From: an uncultured Acidobacteriota bacterium
GTDB taxonomy: Bacteria > Acidobacteriota > Blastocatellia > Pyrinomonadales > Pyrinomonadaceae
Assembly (NCBI GenBank): GCA_963785125.1
Contig: CAWATU010000004.1
Coordinates: forward strand, 51,260-115,259
Length of the DNA: 64,000 nucleotides
Reading direction: 5' to 3'
Shown: piece by piece, positions 1 through 63,028 of the stretch
Numbering within the stretch: position 1 is the first letter of the stretch
Layout of the letters: every line of letters starts with the position of its first letter
Program-made: the position numbers and the translations under genes
Notes under the pieces: generated by a model
What the model was told of the DNA's origin: nothing
The model's input: the letters and a program-made list of their open reading frames with translations, nothing else
The model's database searches: none

Positions 1-419
1 GGCTGGTGCGTGCCGATGAGGCGCCGGTCGAGCGCGCGCGAGCCGAAGACCACGTCGTACTGCCCCGAGCGTATCGGCTCGACGAGCTTGGGCGTCTCCG
101 TGATGGGCATCGAGAGGTCTGCGTCGAAGAAGGCGGCGACCTTGTTGCGCGCGGCCAGGAGCCCCGTGCGCACGGCGTTCCCCTTACCCTTGTTCGGCTC
201 GACGCGGATGACGCGCCCCTCGACCGAGGGCACCGCGCGCTCGTTGAAGACCGCTTCGGCGACTCGCGACGTGTCGTCTTTCGAGCCGTCATCGACGACG
301 ATGACCTCGCCGCCGCCGGGCTGGTCTTCCAGATAGGCCACGACCTCGCGCAAAGTCTTCGCGATGCGCGCCGACTCGTTGTAAGCGGGAATGACGATTG
401 AGAGAGAAGATGAAGACAT
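1..419 (-). CDS. family 2 (GT-A) glycosyltransferase, polyprenol-phosphate glycosyltransferase-like; 3' end outside window
   Basis: Own minus-strand translation from ATG (plus-strand CAT 417-419): MSSSSLSIVIPAYNESARIAKTLREVVAYLEDQPGGGEVIVVDDGSKDDTSRVA...NKGKGNAVRTGLLAARNKVAAFFDADLSMP. This is the GT2 N-terminal signature (PAYNE, DDGSxD, DAD). It is absent from the ORF track because it runs off the left edge. Track ORFs 6..401 and 10..336 (+) are its antisense shadow. Confidence 0.75.
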   Translation of the reverse strand, partial: MSSSSLSIVIPAYNESARIAKTLREVVAYLEDQPGGGEVIVVDDGSKDDTSRVAEAVFNERAVPSVEGRVIRVEPNKGKGNAVRTGLLAARNKVAAFFDADLSMPITETPKLVEPIRSGQYDVVFGSRALDRRLIGTHQ

Positions 420-470: not shown

Positions 471-621
471 GTGGTCAGGAGACAGTAGTCAGGAGGAGAG
501 CAGGCAGTAGGCAGATGGCAGTTAAGCGCCCAGCCGTCAAAAGTTTTTAAGTAACCCCTCAACAAACTTAACGCGGAGCGTACTGCCAACTACCATCTGC
601 CTACTGCCTACTTCCCTGCTC
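471..621. repeat. GGCAGTA-family imperfect palindromic element, copy A
   Basis: Arms at ~502-523 (AGGCAGTAGGCAGATGGCAGTT) and ~588-609 (AACTACCATCTGCCTACTGCCT) pair with one mismatch around a ~64-nt spacer. Further heptamer-like units (GTCAGGA GACAGTA GTCAGGA) lie upstream. The element sits in the divergent region between the GT2 gene and the protease gene. Confidence 0.7.
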
Positions 622-687: not shown

Positions 688-2421
688 ATGAGCAGCAGGA
701 CGTTCGGACGCATCACGGCGGCGGTCATCATCGTGGCGGCGACGCTGGTCGGCGGCATCTACGGGCGGCGCGCCTTCTCGCAGCAGGTCGGCGCCGACGG
801 CGGCGCGCAGCGCATCGAGTCTACCTACCAGGAGGCGCTCTCGGTCATCTCGGAGAACTACGTGGACAGCGTGGACTACGAGAAGGCCAACGAGGCCGCC
901 ATCCAGGGGATGCTCTTTACGCTCGACCCGCATTCGAGCTTCTTCTCGCCGGCCGAGTATCGACGCCTCCTGCAAGACCAGGAGTCGCGCTTCACCGGCA
1001 TCGGCGTCTCCATCCTGCGCCATCGCGACGGCGTCTACGTCCAGACGCCCATCGAGGGCACACCCGCGGCGAAGGCGGGCATGCGCTTCGGCGACCGCAT
1101 CGTCGAGGTGGACGGCAAGGACGCGCGCGACTGGACGACGCAGGCCGTCTCGAAGGCCGTGCGCGGCCCCGAGGGCGAGCCCGTCACCATCAAGATCGAG
1201 CGCGCGGGCAGTCAGGCCCCGCTCTTCTTCACCATCAAGCGCGGCAGCGTCCCGCAGCCCTCCATCCGCAACGCCTTCATGGTCAGGCCCGGCGTCGGCT
1301 ACGTGGGTCTGACGGGCGGCTTCACGCACACGACTTCAGATGAGCTGGCCGCGGCGCTCGAAGAGTTGAGCGGGCAGGGGATGCAGCAGCTCGTCCTCGA
1401 CCTGCGCGGCAACCCGGGCGGTCTGCTCGACCAGGCCATCAAGGTCGCCAGCCACTTCGTCCCGCGGAACAAGGGGGTCGTCTCCGTCCGCACCCGCGAC
1501 GAAGATAACAACCGCGAGTATAAGAACGTCTACTTCGACCCGGTCGAACACCCGCTCGTCGTCCTCGTCAACGGCAACTCGGCCTCGGCCTCCGAGATCG
1601 TCGCGGGCGCGGTGCAGGATCACGGCCGCGGCCTCGTCGTCGGCGAGACGACGTTCGGCAAAGGGCTCGTCCAACGCATCTTCAACCTGCCCTACGGCGC
1701 GGGCCTGACGCTGACGACGGCGAAGTACTACACGCCCTACGGCCGCCTGATTCAGCGCTCGTACGCGGGCGGCTCCATCTACGACTACTACACGCACCAG
1801 AACCCGAACGCCGAGCCGACGCCGCAGACGACGAGCCCGACGACGCCCGTGAACCCGTCGGCGCCGCCCGCGCCCAACGCGGGTTCCGTCGTACCGACCC
1901 CGCAGCCGACGCCCGCGGCGACGCCTTCGGGGCCGCCCATCCGTACGGCGGGCGGGCGCGTCTTCTACGGCGGCGGCGGCATCACGCCCGACCGCGAGGT
2001 CAAGCCGCTCGAAGTGGGAAGCCCCGTGCGCGCGCGCATCTACGAGGAGGCTTTCCAGTTCGCACGGCAATTGGTCGGCGGGCAGATTGCGGGGCTTGAG
2101 AGCTACCGCGTGACCGCCGAGCCGCAGTTCGGCAAGAGCGCCCGACCGACCGACTTCCCCGTCAGCGACAAGGTCTTGCAGGCGTTCCGCGACTTCGCCA
2201 AACGCGACGCGGAGTCGGGCCTGACGCTCACGCAGATCGACCGCGAAATCGAGTACGTGCGCCTGCGCATCCGCGAGAACCTCGTCAACGCTACCTACGG
2301 CGGCGACGCCGCGACGCGCTACCTCCTCGAAGGCGACCCGCAGGTGCTCCGCGCCCTCGAACTCTTCCCCGAGGCCAAAGCCCTCGCCGAGAACATCAGC
2401 CGCCGTCCTGACTCGGAATGA
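688..2421 (+). CDS. S41 family C-terminal processing peptidase with PDZ domain
   Basis: Track ORF 622..2421; the likely start is ATG 688 (MSSRTF.. followed by a TM/signal anchor). PDZ segment: GIGVSI...GTPAAKAGMRFGDRIVEVDG. S41 motifs: LVLDLRGNPGG and NGNSASASEIVAGAVQDHGRGLVVGETTFGKG. There is a P/T-rich insert in the C-terminal half. Confidence 0.9.
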   Translation: MSSRTFGRITAAVIIVAATLVGGIYGRRAFSQQVGADGGAQRIESTYQEALSVISENYVDSVDYEKANEAAIQGMLFTLDPHSSFFSPAEYRRLLQDQESRFTGIGVSILRHRDGVYVQTPIEGTPAAKAGMRFGDRIVEVDGKDARDWTTQAVSKAVRGPEGEPVTIKIERAGSQAPLFFTIKRGSVPQPSIRNAFMVRPGVGYVGLTGGFTHTTSDELAAALEELSGQGMQQLVLDLRGNPGGLLDQAIKVASHFVPRNKGVVSVRTRDEDNNREYKNVYFDPVEHPLVVLVNGNSASASEIVAGAVQDHGRGLVVGETTFGKGLVQRIFNLPYGAGLTLTTAKYYTPYGRLIQRSYAGGSIYDYYTHQNPNAEPTPQTTSPTTPVNPSAPPAPNAGSVVPTPQPTPAATPSGPPIRTAGGRVFYGGGGITPDREVKPLEVGSPVRARIYEEAFQFARQLVGGQIAGLESYRVTAEPQFGKSARPTDFPVSDKVLQAFRDFAKRDAESGLTLTQIDREIEYVRLRIRENLVNATYGGDAATRYLLEGDPQVLRALELFPEAKALAENISRRPDSE

Positions 2422-3200: not shown

Positions 3201-4199
3201 TCAAGCAACGTTAACTGCCAGTCTGTTCTTTACGGCCCCGCTTATCTGCCGCTTGCGCGTCGCCGGCCGGGCTTTCTTTGGCGTGCCGAGGAGCGGCTCG
3301 GCGCGGCCGTCGGCGAGGGCTCGGCCCTGTTGGATGCTGGCGACAGGGACGACGAACCTGGTGCGGCGCGTGACGCTGGCGAGCATCTTCTCAAGCTCGG
3401 CGTCGTCGAGGTTGGCGGCGTCCACGCCGCTCGTGGACAGTTCGTCACGCAGGCGCGCGACCGTGTTGGTGCGGCGGTCATACACGTCCGGGTAGATGTA
3501 GAGCACGCCGCCCTCGACGACCAGCGTGTCGTAGTTGATGTCGAACTCCAGCGGATCTTCGAGCGCGGCCACGAGCGTATTTTTGGTCGCCTTGGCGTTC
3601 GCAATCTGCCGCCGCGTGACGGGCAAGGAACGCGCCGCGACGATCTTCTCCGCCAGCTCGTACAGGTCTGCGCGCATCATGCGTACGCAGCCGTGCGAGA
3701 CGAGGTTGCCGAGGTCGCCCAAGCCCTTCGCCTGATGGATGAGGTAGCCGTCGCCCAGAGGAATCTTGACCTTGCCGAGCGGGTTGCGTGGGTCGCTGGC
3801 CTTGATGACCTCACCGGCGCGGACGCCCTTGTGGCCTGTGACCCAGTCGCTCGAAGGCGGAATCCACGAGGGGTTCCAGATGACCTCGTTCGCCTCGCGC
3901 TCGCCGATATAGATGGGGTAGTCCTTCATCCCGACGCCGATGTTCCAGGACCTCACCTCGCGCCCGTTCTGCCAGAGCGTGAGGCGGAACGACGGAACGT
4001 TGAGCGTCAGCTTGATGTCGGGCTGTCCCGCCTCGAACTCCGCCTTCTCGATCTTCCCGCCGGTCAGCTTGTCGGAACGCTCCGACTCGAAGCGGTCGTA
4101 GCGTATGTAACTCTGCTGCTGCTGCGCATAGGTCGCGCCCACCGACAGAGTCAGCGCGAGCGCCGCCAGCGAGACTCTTAAAATTCCGCGTCTCAACAT
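3201..4199 (-). CDS. L,D-transpeptidase (YkuD domain), secreted
   Basis: Signal peptide (LAALALTLSVGATYAQ) and catalytic motif LIHQ...LVSHGCVRM. Confidence 0.85.
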   Translation of the reverse strand: MLRRGILRVSLAALALTLSVGATYAQQQQSYIRYDRFESERSDKLTGGKIEKAEFEAGQPDIKLTLNVPSFRLTLWQNGREVRSWNIGVGMKDYPIYIGEREANEVIWNPSWIPPSSDWVTGHKGVRAGEVIKASDPRNPLGKVKIPLGDGYLIHQAKGLGDLGNLVSHGCVRMMRADLYELAEKIVAARSLPVTRRQIANAKATKNTLVAALEDPLEFDINYDTLVVEGGVLYIYPDVYDRRTNTVARLRDELSTSGVDAANLDDAELEKMLASVTRRTRFVVPVASIQQGRALADGRAEPLLGTPKKARPATRKRQISGAVKNRLAVNVA

Positions 4200-9525: not shown

Positions 9526-9607
9526 AGAGGTTAGAGACCAGTCAGGCCGGGGGTCAGTTAGGACGATAACTCCTAACTGACCCCCGGCCTGACGGTCTCT
9601 AACCTTT
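9526..9607. repeat. long hairpin with heptamer-periodic arms (GGTTAGA type)
   Basis: ~36-bp stem with one bulged A and a 7-nt loop (CGATAAC). It fills the whole spacer between convergent stops at 9522 and 9610. Confidence 0.85.
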
Positions 9608-13599: not shown

Positions 13600-13743
13600 C
13601 TCTCTCTCCTTATCACGACCCGGCGCGGCCGGGGCTCAATGTTCAGGGGTGGAATTTTTCGGGCCAAGCCGGGAGTCTACAGGACTCTTAAAGCTCGACG
13701 GATGGCCACAAGTCTTTCTCACAAACGGAAGCAAAAGTAAAGA

Positions 13744-13815
13744 GGTGAATGGTGAATAGTAAATGGTAAATGGTTAAGCCAACTTCCATTCACCATTTAC
13801 TATTCACCATTCACC
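13744..13815. repeat. long hairpin, GGTGAAT-heptamer family (copy 1)
   Basis: 30-bp arms (GGTGAAT GGTGAAT AGTAAAT GGTAAAT GG) with one mismatch; loop TTAAGCCAACTT. The stop codon of the 13800..14756 gene lies inside the right arm. Confidence 0.9.
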
Positions 13816-14756
13816 ATATCAGGCACCCAGAAGGTCTGGCCGGCGGATTCGACGCGGCGGAGGCCGCGCGCGGGCAGCTCGCGCTCGGGGAGACCGAGGT
13901 AGGTGAAGTGCGGCAGGTCGCTCAGGACGGTCTGGAACCAGCCGTGGCGCCCGAGCAGCGCCCCGACGCGCGCTTCCTGAAACTCCTCGATGTCGATGGC
14001 GAGCATGGCGAGATGCTGCGAGGCGCCGGGCGCGGCCACCGACTGGAGGATGCTCTTGTCGAAATACTTGCTGAAGAAAACGCCGTCGCTCTCAAGCTCA
14101 AGCACGGCCGCCGCCTGCTCGCGCAGAGGGAGCCCGCGCAGGCGCTCGGCCTCCGCGCCGTCGAGCCGCCCCGCCGCGCACCAGTGTTCGAGCGCCGGGT
14201 CGCAGCGCGAGCGCCAGAGCCGCAGCGAGTCGGCGTAGCTGCGCCGCCCCGCCTCGCTCCCGCCGCGCGGCGTGATGCGCAGCCCCAAGTAGGCCGCCTC
14301 CTCACGCGCGGCCAGCAGCGCGCCCAATGCGACAGGCTGCAACTCGATAACGGCCCCGTTCAGGACTTCGGCCCGCCAGCCCGCCGCGCGCTGGAAACGC
14401 TCGACCGCCTCCTCGCTCTCAAGCACGCAGGCGTCGGGCAGTGCGACGCCCTCGGCGACGAACATCGCGCCGTACTCTTCGAGCACGCGGCGCGTCAGCA
14501 TATCGCCGGCCGGACAGAACTTCTCAAGGCTCAAGCCCCTCCGCCCGAGCGCACGCCCGAGCGCCGCGTGGAAGGGCGAAGCATCTGCGCCGCGCTTGCT
14601 CGCCGCGCAGGCGTCCTCTCGCTTCCCAAACTCTTCGACGGACAAGTCCGTGGGTTCTCCTCTCGGCGCGCCGCGGAAGGCCGGGGCTTGTCCCCGCCGG
14701 CGTCGTGTGGTAACACGCAGGGTCGATTGTAAACGAACGGGGGCGGGCGCTGACAA
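13800..14756 (-). CDS. VanY/M15-like metallopeptidase-fold protein (tentative)
   Basis: H-x6-D (SQHLAMLAID) and a later His (LPHFTY) resemble the Zn ligands of M15 D-Ala-D-Ala carboxypeptidases. No obvious signal peptide. Start uncertain. Confidence 0.5.
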   Translation of the reverse strand: MSAPAPVRLQSTLRVTTRRRRGQAPAFRGAPRGEPTDLSVEEFGKREDACAASKRGADASPFHAALGRALGRRGLSLEKFCPAGDMLTRRVLEEYGAMFVAEGVALPDACVLESEEAVERFQRAAGWRAEVLNGAVIELQPVALGALLAAREEAAYLGLRITPRGGSEAGRRSYADSLRLWRSRCDPALEHWCAAGRLDGAEAERLRGLPLREQAAAVLELESDGVFFSKYFDKSILQSVAAPGASQHLAMLAIDIEEFQEARVGALLGRHGWFQTVLSDLPHFTYLGLPERELPARGLRRVESAGQTFWVPDMVNGE

Positions 14757-14773: not shown

Positions 14774-15133
14774 ATGAGTCGGCTCAACAAATTTCAGGAG
14801 ATACACGCACAGTACCGCCGGCACGGCTGGCGGCTCGCGCGCGTGCTGGCGCGGCCCGAGTCGCTCGCCGAGATGCGCGGCCGCGGCGACGCCGCCGCGA
14901 CGTTCGAGGGCGTAGCCGCGGCCGAGTCGGACGTGGACGCGATGTGGTTCTCGCGCCCCTCCGCGGAAGGGCGCGAGGCTTGGGAGCTGCGCCTCGTCGG
15001 CGACACGCCCTACGCGCTCTTCGAGCTGTTCGAGCCCGACGAAGAGGAAGAGGAGCGCGAAGACGTGCGCCGCGAGATGGAGGCGCGACTGCGCGAGTAC
15101 GTCGCGCCCGGAACGCAGAACGAGGAACGTTGA
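14774..15133 (+). CDS. small acidic hypothetical protein
   Basis: 119-aa ORF divergent from the previous gene. The last ~7 codons and the stop are contributed by the left arm of the downstream hairpin. Confidence 0.5.
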   Translation: MSRLNKFQEIHAQYRRHGWRLARVLARPESLAEMRGRGDAAATFEGVAAAESDVDAMWFSRPSAEGREAWELRLVGDTPYALFELFEPDEEEEEREDVRREMEARLREYVAPGTQNEER

Positions 15134-15192
15134 AGGATGAACTGAAAGCCCCTCGCCTTCAGTTCATCCTTCAACGTTCCTCGTTCTGCGTT
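15112..15192. repeat. long perfect hairpin with heptamer-periodic arms (AACGCAG type)
   Basis: 35-bp perfect stem (AACGCAG AACGAGG AACGTTG AAGGATG AACTGAA) with an 11-nt loop, between convergent stops at 15133 and 15198. Confidence 0.9.
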
Positions 15193-16475: not shown

Positions 16476-16694
16476 TTGGAAGTAACCAAGGCCCTCGCGG
16501 CGCTCCAGCCGCTCTACGGCAAGGACAACGTCGAGATCGTCACCGAGACGGGCGCGCGCGTCCGCGGCGTCGTCCGCAGCCTCAAACAGACGCAGGCGCT
16601 CACACGCCCCAGCGTCAAGATCGAACGCCCCGACGGCGAAGTCGTCAAAATTCACTTCTCAGCCATCACCGAGATCATCGACCACAACCGTTGA
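16476..16694 (+). CDS. small hypothetical protein
   Basis: 72 aa with a TTG start, preceded by AGGGAGG. Confidence 0.5.
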   Translation: MEVTKALAALQPLYGKDNVEIVTETGARVRGVVRSLKQTQALTRPSVKIERPDGEVVKIHFSAITEIIDHNR

Positions 16695-16696
16695 AA

Positions 16697-16817
16697 AGCC
16701 GTGAACCGTGAACCGTCAACCGTGACCAGAGAAAATGGGTTCTTCCTCTGGTCACGGTTGACGGTTCACGGTTCACGGCTCTTTCTGGTCACGGTTTACG
16801 GTTCAAGGTTTACGGTG
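16697..16817. repeat. long perfect hairpin, CGTGAAC-heptamer family (copy 1), plus an extra third arm
   Basis: 35-bp arms at 16697-16731 and 16746-16780 (CGTGAAC CGTGAAC CGTCAAC CGTGACC) with a 14-nt loop. An additional same-sense arm-like segment lies at 16785-16817 (CTGGTCACGGTTTACGGTTCAAGGTTTACGGTG). Confidence 0.9.
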
Positions 16818-16866
16818 TTACAGTATCGGCCCGTCGGCCGCCTCGGGGCCGCGGGAAGAGTTTTGA

Positions 16867-17522: not shown

Positions 17523-17601
17523 AAGGCAAACTTCAAAAAGCAAAAGGAGGATGAGAAACACGCTGCTTCTCATCCTCCTTTTGCTTTTTGAAGTTTGCCT
17601 T
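17523..17601. repeat. long perfect hairpin, AAGGCAA-type heptamer arms
   Basis: 35-bp perfect stem with a 9-nt loop. The right arm overlaps the ispH stop codon (17600-17602). Confidence 0.9.
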
Positions 17602-18446: not shown

Positions 18447-18534
18447 GTATTTTCGATTTGCGATTTCAGATTTTTGATTTTGATTTTTAGGCCGGGGCTT
18501 CAAATCGAAAATCAAAAATCTGAAATCAAAAATT
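18447..18534. repeat. AT-rich hairpin of GATTTnn heptamers immediately upstream of ispH
   Basis: Core stem 18462-18486 / 18502-18527 (~25 bp, one bulge) with the loop containing GGCCGGGGC. It fills the spacer between stop 18533 and the ispH start 18445. Confidence 0.85.
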
Positions 18535-18896: not shown

Positions 18897-19012
18897 TAGA
18901 GAAGGCAGAAGGCAAAGGCAAAGGGGGAAAGGGCGAAAGTAGGACGAGAGACCGCGCGATTCTCATCCACAACTTTTGCTTTTTGCCTATGGCCTTTGCC
19001 TTTTGCTTCTCT
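18897..19012. repeat. imperfect inverted repeat of AAGGCAA-like units
   Basis: Left arm AGAGAAGGCAGAAGGCAAAGGCAAAGGGGGAAAGGGCGAAAG. Right arm ...TTTTGCTTTTTGCCTATGGCCTTTGCCTTTTGCTTCTCT. Related to the 17523 hairpin. Confidence 0.6.
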
Positions 19013-19637: not shown

Positions 19638-19669
19638 CTCAACTCATCTCAAATTTCAAATTTGAAAGT

Positions 19670-22504
19670 TTATACGGCAGCCTCGGAGCGCACGGGCTCG
19701 CGGAGGACAGCCGATGCGGCCTGCGCGGCGACGCGGGCGGCGTCGGGGTGCGCGTCCGTCAGGTTTGATACTTGAAGCAGCGACTCGCCCGTGCGCGAGA
19801 GCATGCGGAAGAGGTCGCCCTCTTCGGCGCGCGTGCGGCGGACGAGCGTGGGCCAGTCCATTCCTGCGGCCCAGCGCGCGGCCGTGGCGGCGGCCGAGAA
19901 GTTGATCTCGGGCGCGGGCTCAAGGTCTTGCTGCCACTCGACGCTCGCCACGTCGTAGGCGATGCGGTCGAACTTCGCGAGCGCCGTGATGAGCGCGTCG
20001 TCCATCTCAAGCTCGCCGTAGTCGCGCTCGGCGTCCGCGGCGAGCGCGGCCATCAGGCCGGCGGCGCGCGGCGCGTCGAGCGAGGCAAACAGCCCGCGGC
20101 TGATGGCTTCACCGACGAGGAGCGGGCGGTCTAATCTCAAGTCCGCGAGCCAGCGCCCGCGCTCTGTGACGCGCTCGGCGAAGAAGTCCAGGTAGCCGAA
20201 GTGGTGGAGCGCACGCGCGCGCCGCTCGAAGGGATGCCATGCTTCGCCGTGCACGGCTTCGAGCCTGCGGCCGAGGCGCTCGATTGATTCGGCCTCCTGC
20301 ATGACCGACCACAGGGCTTCTTCGCAGCGCGTGCGCGAGCCTTCGCCGCCCGCGAGCGACTCGATGAGGTCGTTGATGAGCGCGACGGCCTCCTCGGTTG
20401 AGGAGCGCGCCGCGCGCAGTCCCGGCTCGCGCAAAGGCGTCGCGCGGTTCGCCTGCACCAGCTCGAAGGCCGCGTCGCGCGCCGACTCCGAGAGCGCGTG
20501 CGTCTCCTCCCACACACGCCCGATGCGTTCGAGCGCGAGCGTGACCCGCTTGCCGTTGTCGCGCACGCCCGCGAGCCCGTCGCCGCGCCGCTCCGTGACG
20601 AAGACGAGGCGGCGGTTCCCTTTGCCCACGGAGACGACGCGGCCGGGCACGACCTCCTTGTCGAGCCAGCGCAGGTACGCGTCCGTGCGCGTCTGCGGCG
20701 CATCTTCCAGCAGACGCGAGCGGGCGCTCGCCAGACGTTCGAGCCCGCGCGCAACTTCGGGCGGCAGGTCGCAGCCCGCATCGTGCAGTTTCGACTGCAC
20801 GCGCCGCTCTGCCTCCGCGCGCGCGCGCTCGATGCGCGCGACCTCTTCGGCCACGTCGCGGCGTGCGTAGGAGCGCTCGGCGATCTCGCGCACCTGCGCG
20901 AACGTGCCGAAAGCGTCGAGCAGGTTGAGGAGCGTCGTGTAGGTCGCGCGGAACTGGCTCTCCAAAGGGTCTGGGTCTGCGTGCAGCAGGGACGCGAGCT
21001 TCTGCGGGTTCTGATGTAAGCCCGGCGCGGCGACGATGAAGCCGACGCGGTCGCGCCCGCGGCGTCCGGCTCGTCCCGTCATCTGTTGAAGTTGAGAAGC
21101 ACTCAACGTCTGCCAGCCCTGCCCGCGCCGCACGTCGATGTTCTCAAGCACGACGGTGCGCGCTGGGAAGTCCACGCCGGCCGCGACGGTCATCGTGGCG
21201 AAGATGGAGTCGAGCAGTCCGGCGCTCATCAATTTCTCGATGGCGAGCTTCCACGCGGGCAAATGTCCCGCATGGTGCGAGGCCACGCCACCGCGCAGAA
21301 CCATGTCCCAGTGGCGATGCTTGCGCACCTCCGGGTACTGCTCGGCCAGCTCTTCCAGCGCGCGACGCCTCGCCTCACGTCTTTCGGGGCCGACGCCGCG
21401 GCGCGGCGCGTAGGCGGCCTCGGCCGCGGCCTCGTCGCAGCGGCGGCGCGTGGGCAGGAAGATGATGGCGGGCAGAAGGTCGTAGGAGCCGAGCGCCGCG
21501 AGCAGGATGGACGGCGGCATCTCGGGCATCCCGGCGCGGCGTTGAGGGCCGCGCTGGAAGCGACCCTGCGAGCCCTGCCGCTCGCTCTTCGAGGTCTGCA
21601 TGAAGCGCGCGATCTCGTTGTTGAAGTGTTCGTGCTCGTCGAAGAGCGGTGTCAGTCCGCCGTCGGGGAAGAGGAAGGCGGCGCGCAGCGGGACGGGGCG
21701 CGCGCCCGGCCGTGGGATGACGCGGCAGGGGTGTCCGCGCACCTCCGCGATCCAGTCGGCGAACTCTTCGGCGCGGCCGACCGTGGCCGAGAGCAGAAGC
21801 ATCCGCACGCGCGGCGGCGTCAGGATGATGGCCTCCTCCCAGACGTGCCCGCGCTCCTCGTCGGCGAGGTAGTGCGCCTCGTCTAAGACAACGAGGTCGG
21901 CCTGCAACTGTTCGCCGCGCCGCAGAGCATCGAAGAGTTGATTTCGATAGACTTCGGTCGTGCCGACGATGAGCGGCGCGTCCGAGCGCTCCTTGCGGTC
22001 GCCCGTCAGGATGCCGACCTTCTCGTCGCCGAACTCGGCCGTGAACTCGTGAAACTTCGAGTTGGTGAGGGCCTTCAAGGGGCTCGTGTACCAAGCGCGT
22101 TTGCCTTCGGACAGCAGCCGCCGAATCTCCTCGCGCGCAATCCATGTCTTGCCGCTGCCCGTCGGAGCCGTCACCAGAACGTCTTCGTGTTCGAGCGCGG
22201 CGAGGGCTTCGAGTTGAAACGGGTCGGGTTTGAACGGCGCGGGGTCGGGCGCGCCGATGCCTTCGAGGAGCTGGCGCAGAGGGCGCGTGCGCGACTGACG
22301 CGTGGCGACGCGCGAGGCCGAGTCGGCCGCGGCGTTAGCCGCCGTGCGCGACTCTTTGTCCGGGCCGTCGCGCCCTCGCCCTCGCCCTTCGGAAGTTTGA
22401 CGGAAGTCTGTTTGACGAAAGTCGGGCTGTCCTTCGTCGCGGCTTGGCGTGCGATCCTTGGAGGAGCCGCGGCGGCCCCTGCTTCCTCTGCGCGAACGCG
22501 TCAT
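19670..22504 (-). CDS. Ski2/HelY-like DEAD/DEAH-box helicase
   Basis: Walker A APTGSGKTWIA, VLDEAHYL, LSATV and QMTGRAGRRG, with a long C-terminal extension. Confidence 0.85.
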   Translation of the reverse strand: MTRSRRGSRGRRGSSKDRTPSRDEGQPDFRQTDFRQTSEGRGRGRDGPDKESRTAANAAADSASRVATRQSRTRPLRQLLEGIGAPDPAPFKPDPFQLEALAALEHEDVLVTAPTGSGKTWIAREEIRRLLSEGKRAWYTSPLKALTNSKFHEFTAEFGDEKVGILTGDRKERSDAPLIVGTTEVYRNQLFDALRRGEQLQADLVVLDEAHYLADEERGHVWEEAIILTPPRVRMLLLSATVGRAEEFADWIAEVRGHPCRVIPRPGARPVPLRAAFLFPDGGLTPLFDEHEHFNNEIARFMQTSKSERQGSQGRFQRGPQRRAGMPEMPPSILLAALGSYDLLPAIIFLPTRRRCDEAAAEAAYAPRRGVGPERREARRRALEELAEQYPEVRKHRHWDMVLRGGVASHHAGHLPAWKLAIEKLMSAGLLDSIFATMTVAAGVDFPARTVVLENIDVRRGQGWQTLSASQLQQMTGRAGRRGRDRVGFIVAAPGLHQNPQKLASLLHADPDPLESQFRATYTTLLNLLDAFGTFAQVREIAERSYARRDVAEEVARIERARAEAERRVQSKLHDAGCDLPPEVARGLERLASARSRLLEDAPQTRTDAYLRWLDKEVVPGRVVSVGKGNRRLVFVTERRGDGLAGVRDNGKRVTLALERIGRVWEETHALSESARDAAFELVQANRATPLREPGLRAARSSTEEAVALINDLIESLAGGEGSRTRCEEALWSVMQEAESIERLGRRLEAVHGEAWHPFERRARALHHFGYLDFFAERVTERGRWLADLRLDRPLLVGEAISRGLFASLDAPRAAGLMAALAADAERDYGELEMDDALITALAKFDRIAYDVASVEWQQDLEPAPEINFSAAATAARWAAGMDWPTLVRRTRAEEGDLFRMLSRTGESLLQVSNLTDAHPDAARVAAQAASAVLREPVRSEAAV

Positions 22505-30312: not shown

Positions 30313-31530
30313 ATGAGCGCCAACAGCAGCAGCACCTCGAACAACCCGGTCGTGCAAGCCGTCCTCTCGGGCGCCGCGCCGCAGCCGGCGCGCATGGCGG
30401 CCGCGCGCGGAATGCTGCCCGTCCCGCAGGACGTGCTGTTGGAGTTGCTCGTCGCGCTGCGCGCCGACTCGGACGAGTCGGTGGCGCGCGCCGCCGAAGA
30501 GACGCTCACCAACCAGGATGCGGTGACGCTTCTCGGCGTCGCCTCCGCGCAGGAGACGGCGCCGGCCGTGCTCTCCTACCTCGCGGAGCGGACGGGTCTC
30601 GCGCGCGAGGTGCAGGAGTCGCTCGCGCTCAACGCCTCGACGCCCGACGAGGCCGTGGCCGCGCTCGCGCGCGTGACGGCCGAGGGCGCGGTGCTCGAAC
30701 TCGTCTCCCTCAACCAGCAGCGCCTCATCCGCACGCCCGCCATCATCGACGCCGTGCTCGCCAACCCCGCGCGCACCTCCGACGCCGACCGGCGCGTGCG
30801 CGAGACGCGCCGCGAGTTCTTCGAGAAGGAGCGCGGCGCCCGTCAGGTCGCCGACGAGATGCGTGCGCAGGGGTTGGGCGCCGCCGCCGAGTTCATTGAG
30901 TCGGCCGAATCGTTCGGCGCCGAAGTGGGCCTGAGCCTCGACGATGCGTGGCTCATCGCGCAGCACATCGAGGTCTCGGACGTTGACATCGATGACTCGT
31001 GGCTCCCATCCGAGAGGTTTGAAGACTTGCTCGACGAGACGTTCGAGCAGCGGCAGGCCGCGGCCGAGCGCCTGGTGGCGGAGGCGCTTGCCGAGGGCGC
31101 CACAGCGGCCCCGCCCGAGCGCGTCGCGCTCATCCGCCGCATCATGCTGATGAAGGTCAAGGATCGTATGAAGCTCGGGATGAAGGGCGACCGCGAGGCG
31201 CGCTCGATCCTCATCCGCGACCCGAACAAGGTCGTCGCGCAGGCCGTCATCAACAACCCGCGCATCACCGACCAAGAGGTCGAGGCCATCGCCGCCATGC
31301 GCACGGTCAACGCCGACGTGCTGCGCCTCATCGCCATGAACCGCCACTGGGCGCGGCAGTACCCGGTCATCACTAACCTCGCGCGCAACCCGCGCACGCC
31401 GCTCCCGACCGCGATGTCCATTCTCCCGCGCCTCCACGCCAAAGAGCTGAAGGCGCTTGGCCAGAACCGCAACGTCTCCGACGCCGTCCGACGCCAGGCG
31501 CTCCGCCTCGCCACCGTCCGCGGGCAGTAA
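30313..31530 (+). CDS. hypothetical helical-repeat protein
   Basis: 405-aa ORF with repeated NP(R/A)T..-type helical units (HEAT/LRV-like). The opposite-strand ORF 29758..31593 is judged to be a shadow. Confidence 0.55.
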   Translation: MSANSSSTSNNPVVQAVLSGAAPQPARMAAARGMLPVPQDVLLELLVALRADSDESVARAAEETLTNQDAVTLLGVASAQETAPAVLSYLAERTGLAREVQESLALNASTPDEAVAALARVTAEGAVLELVSLNQQRLIRTPAIIDAVLANPARTSDADRRVRETRREFFEKERGARQVADEMRAQGLGAAAEFIESAESFGAEVGLSLDDAWLIAQHIEVSDVDIDDSWLPSERFEDLLDETFEQRQAAAERLVAEALAEGATAAPPERVALIRRIMLMKVKDRMKLGMKGDREARSILIRDPNKVVAQAVINNPRITDQEVEAIAAMRTVNADVLRLIAMNRHWARQYPVITNLARNPRTPLPTAMSILPRLHAKELKALGQNRNVSDAVRRQALRLATVRGQ

Positions 31531-31531
31531 A

Positions 31532-31613
31532 AAGGCGGTGAATGGTAAATAGTGAATGGTGAATGGAAGTCGGCTTATCCATTCACCATTCACTATTTAC
31601 CATTCACCGCCTT
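31532..31613. repeat. long perfect hairpin, GGTGAAT-heptamer family (copy 2)
   Basis: 36-bp arms with loop AAGTCGGCTTA, which is the reverse complement of the copy 1 loop apart from about 1 nt. The right arm overlaps the stop of the 31612..32145 gene. Confidence 0.9.
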
Positions 31614-32145
31614 AAAAGATTTCCGAGCCCTTGCGCAGCACCGACCAGCCTACGTCGGTGAGGGTATGGCTGGCGGCGCCCCACCAGAGGCCGGCGAGCA
31701 CGGCGGCCAACGCGCGCGGCCCAAAGCCGTAACCGGCGGCCGACGCCTCGACGAACCGCCACACCTCAACCACCTCGCGCCACCCCGGCGCCACGCCACC
31801 CGAGAGGAAGACCGCCCGCGCGTAGACGCACACCCACGCCACGAGCGTCAACACGGCTGCGAAGTAGACGACCCGGATCAGCGTCCCGAAGACGATGCCA
31901 TGCGACCAGCGCGAGCGGTGTCGGAAGACTACCTTGTACGGCCACCACAGAAGCCGCAGCGGCCCCCAGCGCGTGTACTGCCGCGACTGGATGTCGAGGT
32001 CCGGCCCGAACATCAGCCCCCCGAACAGCATCGCCACGGTCGCCGCCGCGCTCAGCCACACGCTCCCCGTCAGCCCCCACGCCGCCGCGAACGTCGGCGG
32101 CGCCAGCACCAGCGTCACCATGTCGTGTGTTTTTCCCGAAGGCAT
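31612..32145 (-). CDS. DUF2227-like putative metal-binding membrane protein
   Basis: Start at ATG 32145 (MPSGKTHDMVT). Several TM segments and conserved His residues (SRWSHG, ASHTLTD). Confidence 0.6.
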   Translation of the reverse strand: MPSGKTHDMVTLVLAPPTFAAAWGLTGSVWLSAAATVAMLFGGLMFGPDLDIQSRQYTRWGPLRLLWWPYKVVFRHRSRWSHGIVFGTLIRVVYFAAVLTLVAWVCVYARAVFLSGGVAPGWREVVEVWRFVEASAAGYGFGPRALAAVLAGLWWGAASHTLTDVGWSVLRKGSEIF

Positions 32146-32149
32146 AAGA

Positions 32150-32265
32150 GCAGTAGGCAGTAGGCAGATGACAGTCGGCAGCCGCTCCACGTTAAGGACG
32201 TTGGAAAACTAAGACGAAGCTGCGACAGCGGCTCTCTTAACTGCCATCTGCCTACTGCCTACTGC
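32150..32265. repeat. GGCAGTA-family palindromic element, copy B
   Basis: Arms GCAGTAGGCAGTAGGCAGATGACAGT (32150-32175) and ACTGCCATCTGCCTACTGCCTACTGC (32240-32265). The ~64-nt spacer contains an inner 7-bp pairing (AGCCGCT/AGCGGCT). Confidence 0.8.
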
Positions 32266-32351
32266 TTATATCATGCGGCGCGCGGCGGAGACCAGCCGTT
32301 TGCCCGCGCGTCGGGCGTGCGTGTACACTGTCGAGCTTCGTCGGAACGGTC

Positions 32352-36803: not shown

Positions 36804-36885
36804 GCGCTTAGGCCATAAGACGAGCGCCTTAGGTCATAAGATCATCGTCTTATGACCTAAGGCGCTCGTCTTATGGCCTAAGCGC
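36804..36885. repeat. long perfect hairpin (38-bp stem) with 21-nt internal periodicity
   Basis: Left arm GCGCTTAGGCCATAAGACGAGCGCCTTAGGTCATAAGA, loop TCATCG, and an exactly complementary right arm, between convergent stops at 36772 and 36890. A small extra hairpin (AAGACG/CGTCTT) lies at ~36775-36789. Confidence 0.9.
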
Positions 36886-38692: not shown

Positions 38693-38786
38693 ACTTTAAG
38701 ACCTTTATCCGAATGAATTTGGCCCCGCCCGGGCGGAGCAGCGGGGCCGGTTCTATTACGATTTGAGGGGAGAAAATGTTTTGGGA

Positions 38787-38885
38787 GCAGATGGCAGCAG
38801 GCAGTTAAAAACCTTTCTAATCACGAACCCTGCGGTTGTCATCAACAACGTCCGCATCGCGGAGCCCGCTGCCTACTGCCTACTC
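38787..38885. repeat. GGCAGTA-family element, degenerate copy C
   Basis: Left arm GCAGATGGCAGCAGGCAGTTAAAA, right arm GCTGCCTACTGCCTACTC, ~60-nt spacer. The right arm overlaps the mnmA stop. Confidence 0.55.
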
Positions 38886-39989
38886 TCTGACAATCCACCC
38901 GCCGCCCGTCACCTCTGCGCCGCGGTAGAAGACGGTGGCCTGTCCCGGAGTGACGGCGCGCTGCGGGTCGTCGAAGCGGACGCGGGCGCGGCCACGCCCG
39001 AGCGGTGTGATGGTGGCCGGCGCTTCCGTGTGGCGGTAGCGGACGCGCACGTCCGCGCGCACGGGCTCAGACGGATCATCGAAGGCGACCCAGTTGACGC
39101 CCGCGGCGGTGAACTCTGAGCTGAGCAGCTCTTCCTCGCGGCCGACGACGACGCGGCTCGACTCGGGCTCCATGCGCACGACGTAGAGCGGGAGCGGGCG
39201 CGAGACGCCGATGCCGCGCCGCTGCCCGACCGTGAAGCGGTGGACGCCCTCGTGCTCTCCGACGACGTGCCCCTCCGTATCCACAATCTCGCCGCGCGCA
39301 GGACGCTCCGTGTCCCTCCCCTCGGCTTCAAGGTAGCGGTCGATGAAGCCCGCGTAGTCGCCATCGGGCACAAAGCAAATCTCCTGCGACTCGCGCTTCT
39401 CGGCGACGTAGAGGCCGTGAAGACGTGCGACCTCGCGCGCCTCCTCCTTCGTCATCTCGCCCAGCGGAAAGAGCGAGCGTGACAACTGCTCCTGCGTCAA
39501 CTCCCAGAGGAAGTACGACTGATCCTTGCGCGCGTCGCGCCCGCGCAGCAGCCGGTAACGTCCCGCCGCTTCGTCGTAACGCACGCGCGCGTAATGGCCC
39601 GTCGCAACCTTCTCACAGCCGACGCTCAAAGCCGTGCGGTCGAGCGCGGCGAACTTCAGACGACTGTTACACGCGACGCACGGGATGGGCGTCTCGCCTT
39701 CGAGGTAGCTCTGCACGAACGGCGCGACCACGTCGCGCTCGAAGTCGCGCTCAAGGTTCAAAACGTAGAAGGGGAAGCCCAACTCCTCTGCCACGCGCCG
39801 CGCGTCGTACACATCGTCGAGCGAACAACAGCGGCTGGGAAGCGGCTCGCCGTCCTCGCCCACACTGAGGCCCCTCCGCTGGTTCCAGAGCTGCATCGTG
39901 AACCCGACCAGCTCGTGCCCCCCGGCCTTCAACAGCGCCGCCGCCGCCGAACTATCGACGCCGCCGCTCATCGCAACTGCTATCTTCAT
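38880..39989 (-). CDS. mnmA: tRNA 2-thiouridine(34) synthase MnmA
   Basis: Start at ATG 39989 ([16 protein letters not shown]-loop). Conserved CCS..D and C-terminal barrel regions. Confidence 0.95.
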
Positions 39990-47422: not shown

Positions 47423-47435
47423 AAGTTGAAGTACT

Positions 47436-47504
47436 GAGTGCTGAAGACTGAGGACTGAGTTGAAGACAACGAGTTCTTCACTCAGTCCTCAGTCTTCAGC
47501 ACTC
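47436..47504. repeat. long hairpin with nnACTGA heptamer arms
   Basis: ~30-bp stem (GAGTGCTGAAGACTGAGGACTGAGT(T)GAAGA) with one bulge and an 8-nt loop, between stop 47510 and start 47422 on the same strand. Confidence 0.9.
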
Positions 47505-47509
47505 AATAC

Positions 47510-48262
47510 TCATTCTATCCCTTCCAGCGGCCACTGCCGGTCGATGAATTCGAGGTGGAGGCGCGGGATGCCATCCGCGCCCGAACGCGACGCGCGCACG
47601 GCGGCGACGATGGAGAGTCCCGTCTCCGTGCTGGTCAGTCGCACGAAGCGCCCGCGCTCGACCTGAAGCATCGTCCAGACGGCCGCGCCGCGGCGGCTGA
47701 TGTTCTCCGTTACCGTCTGCTCGCTGGCCTCCACGCGCCCCTCCGCGTCGAAGACCTCCAGCCGCACGCCGAGCGCCATCTGGAGCCGCGTCAGCTCGGA
47801 GCGCTCGCCGACCGACTGCTGCTCGGCCTCCTTCAGACGCCAGAGGTTGTCCTCCGCCGAGACCGAGGTGGCCTCGTAGAGCGTCGAAGGGTCGCGGACG
47901 TAGCTCGCCGGTGGGTGCTTGCCCGTGAACGCCACCCCGACCTCGTAGCGCACGCCGCCCGCCTCCTCGCCCGCGAACTCCGGCCGCACCGAGAGGTGGC
48001 AGACCAGCGCCCAGACACGGTACTGGTCTTCGATGTGGTCGAAGCAGCGGAGTTGGCGCGGCATCGGCATCGTCAGGTGCAGGAGCCGGCCGCGCTCGGT
48101 CGGGCGCGTGAGCGGGAAACGCGCGCCGAACGGTGTCACGTCCACCAGCCGCGACATCTCCGTCCACTCGTGACCGGCCGTCTCGCGGCATTGGACGCGG
48201 AGGGGGAGCGCCAGCTTGATGCGCTCGCGCACGCGGTTCCGTTTGTGGTCTGACTCGGACAC
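47510..48262 (-). CDS. PilZ domain-containing protein (tentative, two PilZ-like halves)
   Basis: RVRER (RxxxR) followed by DVTPFGA (D-x-S/T-x-x-G-like). The second half shows a similar pattern (ENISRRGA). Confidence 0.6.
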   Translation of the reverse strand: MSESDHKRNRVRERIKLALPLRVQCRETAGHEWTEMSRLVDVTPFGARFPLTRPTERGRLLHLTMPMPRQLRCFDHIEDQYRVWALVCHLSVRPEFAGEEAGGVRYEVGVAFTGKHPPASYVRDPSTLYEATSVSAEDNLWRLKEAEQQSVGERSELTRLQMALGVRLEVFDAEGRVEASEQTVTENISRRGAAVWTMLQVERGRFVRLTSTETGLSIVAAVRASRSGADGIPRLHLEFIDRQWPLEGIE

Positions 48263-60876: not shown

Positions 60877-60971
60877 CGTGAACCGTGAACCGTAAACCGT
60901 GACAAGTAAGAACAGGCTTTAATCCTGTCACGGTTTACGGTTCACGGTTCACGCTCCTTTCACGGTTTACG
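60877..60971. repeat. long perfect hairpin, CGTGAAC-heptamer family (copy 2), plus an extra half-arm
   Basis: 28-bp arms at 60877-60904 and 60926-60953 (CGTGAAC CGTGAAC CGTAAAC CGTGACA) with a 21-nt loop. An extra CACGGTTTACG lies at 60961-60971. Confidence 0.9.
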
Positions 60972-62348: not shown

Positions 62349-62465
62349 CCTATACGACTCTGGCCTGACTGTTTACCGATAAGGGCAGCTCTTAAACGTC
62401 ACTGTTGTAGGGCACATTATACAGTAGGCGGTAAGCAGATGGCAGCGGGCAGTTCGAGGCCGAAA

Positions 62466-62864
62466 GTTGAGACTCTGAGACGAAAATTTGGCTCTCCGTG
62501 ACGGAACTTTTCGTCTCGGAGACGGAACGTCGGGTCTCTCAGACGGAATCTTCACTCTCCGAGAAGGAAAGTCGGGTCTCCGAGAGTCAACTTTGGGTTT
62601 CGGAGACGGAAATTTTCGTCTCAGAGAGTGAACGTTGACTCTCCGAGAAGGAAAATTGGGCCTCCGAGACGCAACGTTGACTCTCCGAGATGGAAAGTCG
62701 GGTCTCCGGGAGTGGAAATTCAGTCTCGGAGAGTCAAAATTGACTCTCCGAGACTGAATTTTGACTCTCGGAGAGTCAACGTTCACTCTCTGAGACGAAA
62801 ATTTGGGGCTCGGAGGCGGAACGACGGGCCTTCAAGGCGGAAAGTCGGGTCTCCGGGCTCAAAC
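62466..62864. repeat. tandem array of 19 units of a 21-bp palindromic repeat (consensus GAGAGTCAA-NN-TTGACTCTC-N)
   Basis: TCTC-N-GAGA dyad centres fall at 62476 + 21n (n = 0..18), with no indels. The array is flanked by a GGCAGTA-type arm at 62422-62454 and a partial complement at 62868-62878. Confidence 0.9.
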
Positions 62865-63028
62865 CCCCTACTGCCCGCTCCCCGGCGCGGGCTCTTTGAA
62901 CAGCTTCTCGACCATGTCGCCGAGGCGGGAGAGTGCGGCCGGGCTGACGCCGATGCTGATGAAGCGGACGGCGCCCCGACTCTCATATTCTTCACCTCCG
63001 TCGTCAAGACTAAGTGGCGGATAGGGCG

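Follow-up and report, generated by a model that had tools for sequence, protein, structure and literature searches.

A putative REP/BIME-like family of intergenic palindromes with heptamer-array arms and an asymmetric core in Pyrinomonadaceae

Three intergenic palindromes, which we refer to as copies A, B and C, lie within a stretch of 64,000 nucleotides (the window) on contig CAWATU010000004.1 of an uncultured bacterium of the Pyrinomonadaceae (Acidobacteriota), and their sequences point to a family resembling the repetitive extragenic palindromes (REP) and bacterial interspersed mosaic elements (BIME) that is lineage-specific to the Pyrinomonadaceae. The traits of REP-type sequences are present, in that these are short extragenic palindromes that occur in many copies and whose inverted pairs form a long hairpin. 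We favor, with moderate confidence, a reading in which copies A–C are transcript-boundary palindromes that are kept palindromic at the DNA level and that carry a probably protein-binding core, a function suggested by their position and their conservation. An earlier note, made from the sequence alone, had described the repeat as either a mobile or REP-like element with an amplifiable internal segment or a recurrent regulatory module, the last of which is a possible reading of copies A–C. The most interesting aspect lies outside the frame of that note: GGCAGTA, the heptamer from which the arms of these copies are built, is one of many heptamers found in the same kind of hairpin.

The flagged locus, copy B, occupies positions 32144-32271 on the minus strand, with arms at 32144-32175 and 32240-32271 that enclose a 64-nt core of type 1 (32176-32239) oriented along the minus strand. 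Copy A (491-620, plus strand) has arms of GGCAGTA-type heptamers at 491-523 and 588-620 and a core of the same type and length (524-587), reading GTTAAGCG...TCAAC...CGCGGAGCG on the plus strand, and copy C (38784-38889, plus strand) is more degenerate, with arms at approximately 38787-38806 and 38866-38885 and a core of type 2, GTTAAAAACC...CATCAACAACGTCCGCATCGCGGAGCC. Folded as hairpins, the arms of A (33 nt) are 85% complementary and those of B (32 nt) 91%, each closing a loop of 64 nt, and the folding z-scores range from −5.7 to −8.9 for A and B and are weaker, at about −2.5, for C. As the earlier note had remarked, the spacers are poorer in GC than their surroundings (0.50–0.56 versus 0.66 for the whole window). 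In an alignment of A(+), B(−) and C(+) the similarity runs on through the spacer, and the three spacers are homologous, beyond a mere likeness in size. Allowing at most one mismatch, the word GCAGATGGCAG occurs 7 times in the 64-kb window against an expectation of 1.3, a count reached in none of 100 shuffles, and GGCAGTAGGCAG occurs 9 times against an expectation of 0.17, again with no shuffle as high. Word counts this far above the shuffled expectation, together with the spacer homology, rule out a chance likeness of simple repeats.

We then built a covariance model of arms and core from 25 copies and scored the whole window with it at every position, with filters off. B(−), A(+) and C(+) were the only members in the window, with 92.5, 91.6 and 67.9 bits respectively, all other hits being generic hairpins at 30 bits or less. 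Since the reverse strands of A, B and C score about 45 bits below the strands in core orientation, the core is real and asymmetric. The same model gives arm-only hairpins about 50–60 bits on both strands.

To define the range of the family, one genome per species was scanned for the pattern GGCAGTAGGCAG-N65-95-CTGCCTACTGCC, which gave at least 116 loci. Among the matches listed, most came from metagenome-assembled genomes (MAGs) of Pyrinomonadaceae, Blastocatellia or other Acidobacteriota, the others being from Mesorhizobium isolates and from Brevundimonas, Chloroflexia, Planctomycetota, Armatimonadota, Gemmatimonadaceae and Bacteroidota, and only the acidobacterial matches bear the core. The search of related genomes with such a model, a check that the earlier note had put forward, returned at least 32 further members besides A–C (26 + 6) at 67 bits or more among the fetched loci, each of them in a MAG of Pyrinomonadaceae type or of Acidobacteriota, and a core-only hidden Markov model (HMM) raised the core-bearing total to at least 39, some of them with GTAGTCA or GTAGACA arms. 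The idea of a REP-like dispersed family was therefore borne out for copies A–C, with arms and asymmetric core both conserved among these members in Pyrinomonadaceae-type genomes. The arms are tandem NCAGTAG heptamers, mostly GGCAGTA and often with one GGCAGAT variant unit. The type 2 core of copy C (type 1 being that of A and B) is also found between GTAGTCA or GTAGACA arms, which reduces the invariant portion of the unit to CAGTAG.

The core itself is about 60 nt long and is conserved as a set of motifs, GTTGAAAG, TTAA, TTCAAC and CGCGGAGCG, the first of which occurs in the degenerate form GTT[GA]A[AG]AG and the last of which abuts the 3′ arm. These motifs are approximately 95% conserved, compared with approximately 50% for the positions between them. 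In the arm columns, 92% of cells are paired and four pairs show double changes, while past the outer stem there is no covariation, and RNAalifold keeps the outer stem only. Four candidate folds of the inner core, namely a GTTGAAAG/CTTTCAAC helix, the hairpin CGAGAA/CTCGG, the mini-hairpin CGC-GGA-GCG and the AGCCGCU/AGCGGCU helix seen in B, were rejected for lack of covariation support: either changes on the left side lack compensating ones, or the right side is invariant.

The placement of the elements relative to genes is tight. Copy A lies between the divergent genes at 3-419 (minus strand) and 688-2421 (plus strand, an S41 peptidase), copy B between a DUF2227 gene (minus strand) and a lipid A acyltransferase gene (plus strand), which are likewise divergent, and copy C between the stop of mnmA (38880), which it overlaps, and the start of an S49 peptidase gene (38692). 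Both neighbors of C are on the minus strand, so that its core is antisense to transcription. These contexts are as the earlier note had given them. Across 29 elements, 13 are tandem-sense, 6–9 tandem-antisense, 5 divergent and none convergent, and the distance from the element to the stop or start codon is 5–30 nt, often just 5′ of an AGGAGG ribosome-binding site. Relative to the flanking genes, the core is found in both orientations. The genes flanking the elements are housekeeping genes (S41 peptidase, DUF2227, lipid A acyltransferase, S49 peptidase, mnmA and metallophosphoesterase). An integron attC site, whose core sites run 5′-RYYYAAC ... GTTRRRY-3′ in a cassette array beside an integrase, was considered and rejected, since the similar words here stand in the opposite order (GTTGAAAG ... 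CTTTCAAC) and the flanking genes are of this kind.

At copy B, 3 nt separate the probable true start codon of DUF2227 (MPSGKTHD..., 32138-32140, minus strand) from the hairpin foot, and nucleotide conservation across DUF2227 orthologs ends exactly at this codon. The right foot carries a conserved candidate extended −10-like box, TGATATAAG (32265-32273, minus strand), which reads TGnTATAAG in relatives. If this box is functional, most of hairpin B would be the 5′ leader of the DUF2227 mRNA, though the box fails a strict consensus promoter scan. A promoter-like pair of boxes for the lipid A acyltransferase gene, TTGCCC-N18-TACACT (32300-32329, plus strand), is conserved among orthologs and lies outside the hairpin, but these boxes also fall below the strict scan threshold.

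How the arms evolve can be seen at the site of copy B (the lpxL site), for which a metagenome scan with the neighboring LpxL-like protein gave 80 loci at 60–92% protein identity. Upstream sequence was sufficient in 69 of them, and in 36 of these a hairpin whose arms are at least 18 nt long stands at the orthologous position; 29 of the 36 hairpins have a period of 7, with at least 18 different units. The flanks are conserved, comprising the N-terminus of DUF2227 (MPSGKTHD), the foot of the hairpin ATAAGCAG/CTGCTTAT with its TGnTATAAG box, and further stretches GACCAGCCGTTTGCC and TACACTGT, while the interior of the hairpin is hypervariable. Across the closer relatives, the arrays are in register as YAGNRGN, yet each relative has homogenized a different variant (CAGTAGG, CAGGAGT/CAGAAGT, TAGAGGY or CAGAGGT) and mirrors it in the 3′ arm. 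Different homogenized units that remain in register and are mirrored in the opposite arm indicate concerted evolution in place. A core is present at this site only in the window, with a diverged core-like loop in the locus L124, and the core-only HMM found no core in the 80 loci.

Two other orthologous sites come from a comparison with L047, a Pyrinomonadaceae MAG to which the window is 86–88% identical over 3 kb. At exactly the same position and between conserved flanks, the window has a hairpin at 13740-13819 with GTGAATG/GTAAATG arms and a 12-nt loop, whereas L047 has a GGCAGTA-plus-core element. The hairpin at 16694-16783 lies between divergent genes and has GTGAACC arms and an 8-nt loop; the interior of its L047 ortholog has diverged, with complementarity kept. 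If the arms were held together by selection on RNA base pairs, wobble pairs would be expected to favor the sense strand; G.U-type arm mismatches in tandem contexts are instead evenly divided between sense (140) and antisense (130; p = 0.58), such that the palindromy is not visibly kept by selection on RNA base pairs. Copy correction at the DNA level fits the maintenance of the arms better than selection on RNA pairs.

We surveyed the window and 196 fetched loci (1.14 Mb in all) for intergenic hairpins with arms of at least 20 nt, and found 351. Among the 259 that are clearly periodic, the arm period is 7 in 231 and 8 in 19; in the subset that was not chosen for GGCAGTA, the period is 7 in 64 of 72, and hairpins inside genes have no preference for period 7. 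We counted 72 distinct arm units. In the window alone there are approximately 10 more hairpins with heptamer arms, built from other units including GTGAATG, GTGAACC, GACTGAG and GATTTTT. The loop is short at convergent gene ends (median 6) and longer beside gene starts. The arms are also polar, with a G-rich 5′ arm and a C-rich 3′ arm in 75 versus 24 hairpins of the unbiased intergenic subset and in 159 versus 55 once the GGCAG types are left out, compared with 18 versus 19 for in-gene hairpins; the G-rich 5′-arm polarity holds on both strands. The GGCAGTA-plus-core element is one lineage-specific flavor of a pervasive class of rapidly changing hairpins that fills most intergenic regions in these genomes. 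A 7-nt unit that bears a stop codon places a stop in every frame, and stop codons in all three frames are found in 47 of 109 period-7 non-GGCAGTA arms, compared with 34.4 ± 4.2 after column permutation (3 of 500 permutations reach 47). As a cause of the 7-nt unit we rejected this, since the enrichment is weak and covers less than half of the hairpins, and it is not defining.

These observations suggest a mechanism for the reading of copies A–C as transcript-boundary palindromes. The element would sit inside transcribed gene boundaries, right after stops and right before ribosome-binding sites and starts, and hairpin B in particular would probably be part of the DUF2227 5′ leader. The very long stem would probably act as a transcript-boundary device, either as a barrier to read-through and exonucleases, or as a processing site for a double-strand RNase, or both, and the core would probably be a protein-binding module rather than a folded RNA. 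In the likeliest version, slippage would spread a variant heptamer along one arm, and template switching inside the palindrome would then copy it to the opposite arm.

Several points weigh against this reading. Neither a U-tract terminator nor a consensus sigma-70 promoter was found at A or B in a strict scan. The integration host factor (IHF) site WATCAANNNNTTR is present in none of 35 cores on either strand, although this consensus is that of E. coli and may not suit acidobacterial IHF, and no binding protein was identified for the core. The even division of G.U mismatches fits a role at the RNA level less well than one at the DNA level, and the presence of the core in both orientations is awkward for a strictly strand-specific RNA function of the core. 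Transcription data add little: no public run covers more than 31% of the sampled words, the best being from distant relatives only, and those labelled ‘RNA’ reach 5% and may contain DNA. Finally, the pattern that found most members required exact GGCAGTAGGCAG arms, so that sampling accounts in part for how uniform the arms look and for how the core is distributed among taxa. In two soil ‘RNA’ runs, which may contain DNA, a high contig depth is seen over the GGCAGTA arm only and is summed from many loci.

Known signals of transcription were also tried as candidates and rejected. There are no intrinsic terminator-like sites at A and B, where the loops are 64 nt compared with the 3–8 nt required. 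For a sigma-70 promoter within the core, the spacing of the TTGAAA-like and TTAA-like words does not fit and the strict scan finds none, and for an ECF-like (extracytoplasmic function) promoter on the antisense strand (TGAAAG-N15-19-CGAC) the spacer is inconsistent. A sigma-54 promoter in the arms would require a GG-to-GC spacing of 12, but the 7-nt repeat gives spacings of 1, 8 or 15.

The first alternative is that the elements are miniature inverted-repeat transposable elements (MITEs), as the earlier note had offered, in which the heptamer arrays would serve as terminal inverted repeats, the core would be the remnant of a parent insertion sequence and the transposase would be encoded elsewhere. 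We consider this unlikely, even though the architecture invites it: terminal inverted repeats are present in A and B (30–33 nt, 85–91% complementary), the elements are about 130 bp long, dispersed in many copies and strictly intergenic, the 13740 site holds the GGCAGTA-plus-core element in L047 and a different hairpin in the window, and the core at the lpxL site, present in the window and perhaps in L124, is absent from closer relatives. However, cores from one MAG differ as much from each other (identity 0.587, maximum 0.75) as cores from separate MAGs (0.571, maximum 0.81), so that a recent burst, and with it a recently active MITE, can be rejected. The target-site duplications that the note had proposed to look for are absent from the two orthologous sites that could be compared, and only those two (13740 versus L047, and the lpxL site), and the outer ends of the inverted repeats are blurred because the palindrome carries on into the flanks. 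No transposase was found beside the elements or between neighboring copies, where the open reading frames are ordinary genes. At the lpxL site, the orthologous foot of the hairpin and the arrays in register across relatives point to evolution in place rather than insertion, and the conservation of the core is motif-like rather than uniform. For the REP-associated tyrosine transposases (RAYTs), none was seen among the open reading frames between paired elements at nine loci, the translations being judged by eye and without a domain search. The tetranucleotide GTAG, of the type conserved at the foot of REP sequences, is present in every GGCAGTA or GTAGTCA unit and absent from the GTGAATG and GTGAACC hairpins of the class.

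A second alternative, which we likewise doubt, is that the palindromes have no dedicated function and are a neutral or selfish by-product of heptamer slippage and quasi-palindrome correction, with an old core lineage that ectopic gene conversion between identical arms would have carried from place to place. In many bacteria no long simple repeat is commoner than the heptanucleotide kind, for which polymerase slippage has been proposed as a cause (cited in PMC4679880), and such a by-product would account for the rapid turnover of heptamers at one site, for arm mismatches that carry no RNA-strand signature and for the recurrence of the same units in unrelated phyla. It fits less well with a hairpin that persists at the orthologous position even though the neighboring LpxL-like proteins diverge down to about 60% identity, or with the tight placement at stops and starts and the absence of core elements between convergent genes, where 0 of 24 were found. 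The gap in conservation between the core motifs and their neighboring positions and the arm polarity that is seen between genes but not within them also speak against it.

A third alternative, distinctly improbable in our view, is an element that works at the DNA level by cruciform or hairpin extrusion, or through a nucleoid-associated protein that would read the heptads and the core, so that the palindrome might serve as a supercoil sink, a domain or promoter insulator or an organizing site. Strand-symmetric arm mismatches, the occurrence of the core in both orientations relative to genes and conserved core motifs that do not covary as a fold would all be in keeping with such an element, as would the fact that three heptamers span 21 bp, or two turns of B-DNA. 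For interrupted palindromes with 64-nt loops, however, cruciform extrusion is kinetically unfavorable; neither a binding protein nor an IHF site of the E. coli type was found; and at convergent gene ends, where hairpins of the class also stand, termination is the simpler explanation. There is a resemblance to the binding of gyrase and IHF by BIMEs and to the ‘global regulator sites’ proposed for Geobacter, and the annotation of Geobacter metallireducens reads paired opposite-strand tandem-heptanucleotide sites in this way (PMC2700814).

The last alternative, a structured cis-regulatory RNA or small RNA gene in which the core would fold as a ligand or protein sensor closed by the heptamer stem, is disfavored and very improbable, since against the very strong folding energy (z down to −8.9), the location in 5′ leaders and between cistrons and the conserved core stand the absence of a covarying inner helix, the roughly one third of copies that are antisense to flanking genes, the lack of G.U enrichment on the sense strand and the failure to match a known RNA family (no Rfam hit at the gathering threshold for the window and five loci, only generic long-hairpin hits to microRNA precursor models far below threshold).

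The earlier note had counted a fourth copy, D, and the strings it quoted at all four loci are present, but only A, B and C could be kept in the family. Locus D has a good left arm at 62422-62454 (plus strand) with five GGCAGTA-like heptamers, the last being GTTCGAGG, and a right-arm remnant at 62868-62880 (plus strand), CTACTGCCCGCT, that pairs with only about 10–12 nt of the left arm and has no CGCGGAGCG core motif ahead of it. These arm fragments match neither the arms-plus-core model nor the core-only HMM, and locus D is arm-like in sequence but outside the family. Between the fragments lies a 21-bp tandem array (62455-62860), with 12–17 copies at 64–65% matches and stronger super-periods of 42, 63 and 84 bp, in which each unit is itself a small palindrome (GAGAC...GTCTC). 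The note had likened the spacers of A–C to the unit of this array and had suggested that the internal segment of the element can be amplified. Neither proposal stands, as the similarity between the array and the cores of A–C is no better than in shuffled controls. Among the 196 fetched loci, the array has no homolog. Its unit length of 21 bp corresponds to three heptamers and to two turns of DNA, which may or may not be a coincidence.

Apart from copies A–C, nearly every intergenic gap in the window holds a long, near-perfect hairpin with heptamer arms (GTGAATG, GAACGNN, GTGAACC, GATTTTT, TTTCAAA or GACTGAG). In addition to the hairpins at 13740-13819 and 16694-16783 described above, these are found at 15112-15192, at 18456-18533, at 19647-19674, at 31528-31617 (GTGAATG arms with a 10-nt loop, between convergent gene ends), at 47430-47510 (GACTGAG/GTACTGA arms) and at 60877-60953 (GTGAACC arms with a 17-nt loop, between tandem genes). 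The GTACTGA/GTGCTGA unit is common to the hairpin at 47430-47510 and to a Chloroflexia MAG (L037:7198-7279), and the GGCAGTA unit is present in at least seven phyla. Such sharing of units may reflect either a limited set of possible heptamers or horizontal spread. Immediately after the GTGAACC hairpin, at 16784-16822, there is an extra half-arm, TCTGGTCACGGTTTACGGTTCAAGGTTTACGGTG, which is absent from the L047 ortholog; it may be a partial duplication of an arm and an intermediate in arm growth.

Some hairpins depart from the 7-nt rule. Those at 17523-17601, 36804-36885 and 9539-9595 have no clear 7-nt period, with arms of 25–41 nt that are 95–100% complementary and loops of 0–7 nt, and the first two, between convergent gene ends, are probably bidirectional terminators. 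The hairpin at 17523 holds AAGGAGGATGAG, a mimic of a ribosome-binding site and start codon. Where the window has this hairpin, L047 (reverse complement, 3880-4183) has the start of an IS5-family-like transposase open reading frame (MSYQLYPTDLTDREWDCIKSLIPP...), and an insertion sequence may have targeted or replaced the equivalent hairpin there. Just 3′ of a gene stop, the hairpin at 18907-19010 closes a 68-nt loop with 18-nt arms that repeat every 6 nt (AAGGCA units). Together with the period-8 arms in the survey, it indicates that units of other lengths than 7 nt can also build this architecture.

Hairpins of this kind also leave traces in assemblies. Between 30500 and 40500, short-read metagenome contigs of close relatives stop at hairpins, with examples at 31564/31581, 32153/32262 and 36797/36848. 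In the locus L121 (1-233), the lpxL upstream region is a palindrome with arms of 98–102 nt that are 97–99% complementary, placed at a contig end and centered on the heptamer hairpin, which is most likely an assembly fold-back artifact that arose from the hairpin.

Going beyond copies A–C, we would give a small chance to a broader proposal, in which heptamer-array palindromes are a distinct and widespread class of cis-elements in Acidobacteriota, Chloroflexi, Planctomycetota, Alphaproteobacteria and Geobacter. Their arms would be made and kept symmetric by a specific DNA mechanism that works in 7-nt steps, their restricted unit vocabulary (NCAGNAG, GTACTGA, TCAGGAG and others) would be shared across phyla through an enzyme or other protein, conserved among them, that reads or writes heptads, and the Pyrinomonadaceae core would be the docking site of a lineage-specific partner. 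If so, these palindromes would be more than analogues of REP sequences and would amount to a self-renewing punctuation of bacterial transcription units. Acidobacteria are among the most abundant soil bacteria, and transcription-unit boundaries in them are almost wholly uncharted. If the palindromes mark transcript ends and starts, they would be of practical use in annotation and would give access to mRNA stability in the phylum. A hairpin that is kept while its heptamer is swapped and mirrored is, moreover, an unusually clean natural case of concerted evolution within a palindrome, and with the series of orthologous sites, the long-standing question of why bacterial intergenic DNA is dominated by 7-nt repeats can be tested directly. 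On the practical side, the elements fragment short-read metagenome assemblies at gene boundaries.

Apart from weighing explanations for these elements, we compared them with repeat systems already described. Heptanucleotide repeats are already known, whereas the acidobacterial family, its core and the turnover at orthologous sites were not found described in the literature. Arrays of TAACTGA close to start codons have been described from Beggiatoaceae, cyanobacteria and Bacteroidetes (PMC4679880), and Nostoc has heptamer repeats in the vicinity of promoters (bioRxiv 10.1101/2022.06.06.494920). These arrays, like the short tandemly repeated repetitive (STRR) sequences of cyanobacteria, share with our elements a 7-nt unit and an intergenic location near start codons; the unit is scattered over distant phyla and its function is loosely regulatory at most. 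They are described as direct arrays, in contrast to the inverted pairs, long hairpins and mirrored variants seen here, with one family that carries a core. The annotation of Geobacter metallireducens has inverted pairs of tandem 7–9-nt sites on opposite strands, multicopy, intergenic and variably separated, which are listed as putative global-regulator (IHF/HU) sites (classes 2 and 3, the latter being MTYCTGA ×5; PMC2700814). The class 3 unit MTYCTGA, as given there, is the reverse complement of the TCAGGAG/TCAGAAG unit at the lpxL site in L118 and L123. The Geobacter sites are from another phylum and appear as supplementary annotation only, and no conserved core, orthologous turnover or periodicity statistics are reported in the text and legends.

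The Correia elements of Neisseria (CREE/NEMIS) and the ERIC/IRU elements resemble the acidobacterial family in having a length of about 100–150 bp with inverted ends. They are co-transcribed with their neighbors, their long RNA hairpins are substrates of RNase III or RNase E, and they contain internal motifs for promoters or protein binding and affect how stable the flanking mRNA is. Unlike Correia elements, which have defined 26-bp terminal repeats, TA duplications and near-identical copies, the acidobacterial copies are old (about 58% core identity), show no duplication and have arms made of heptamer arrays. The enterobacterial REP/BIME sequences, especially BIME-1/RIP, in which two inverted REPs surround an IHF motif, and the REPINs of Pseudomonas share with our elements the inverted arms of about 30 nt, the spacer of about 60–70 nt and the many copies per genome, as well as an intergenic location that here, too, is probably transcribed, often within about 15 nt of stop codons, and a central motif that is conserved as sequence and not as a fold. 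The acidobacterial element is found in either orientation to the flanking genes. It differs from the REP/BIME sequences in that no RAYT-type transposase was seen by eye in 1.1 Mb and no E. coli IHF consensus is present, and in that its arms repeat a heptamer in tandem, a variable number of times. Above the level of the single element, an acidobacterial genome mixes unrelated arm sequences on the same architecture and swaps them at orthologous sites.

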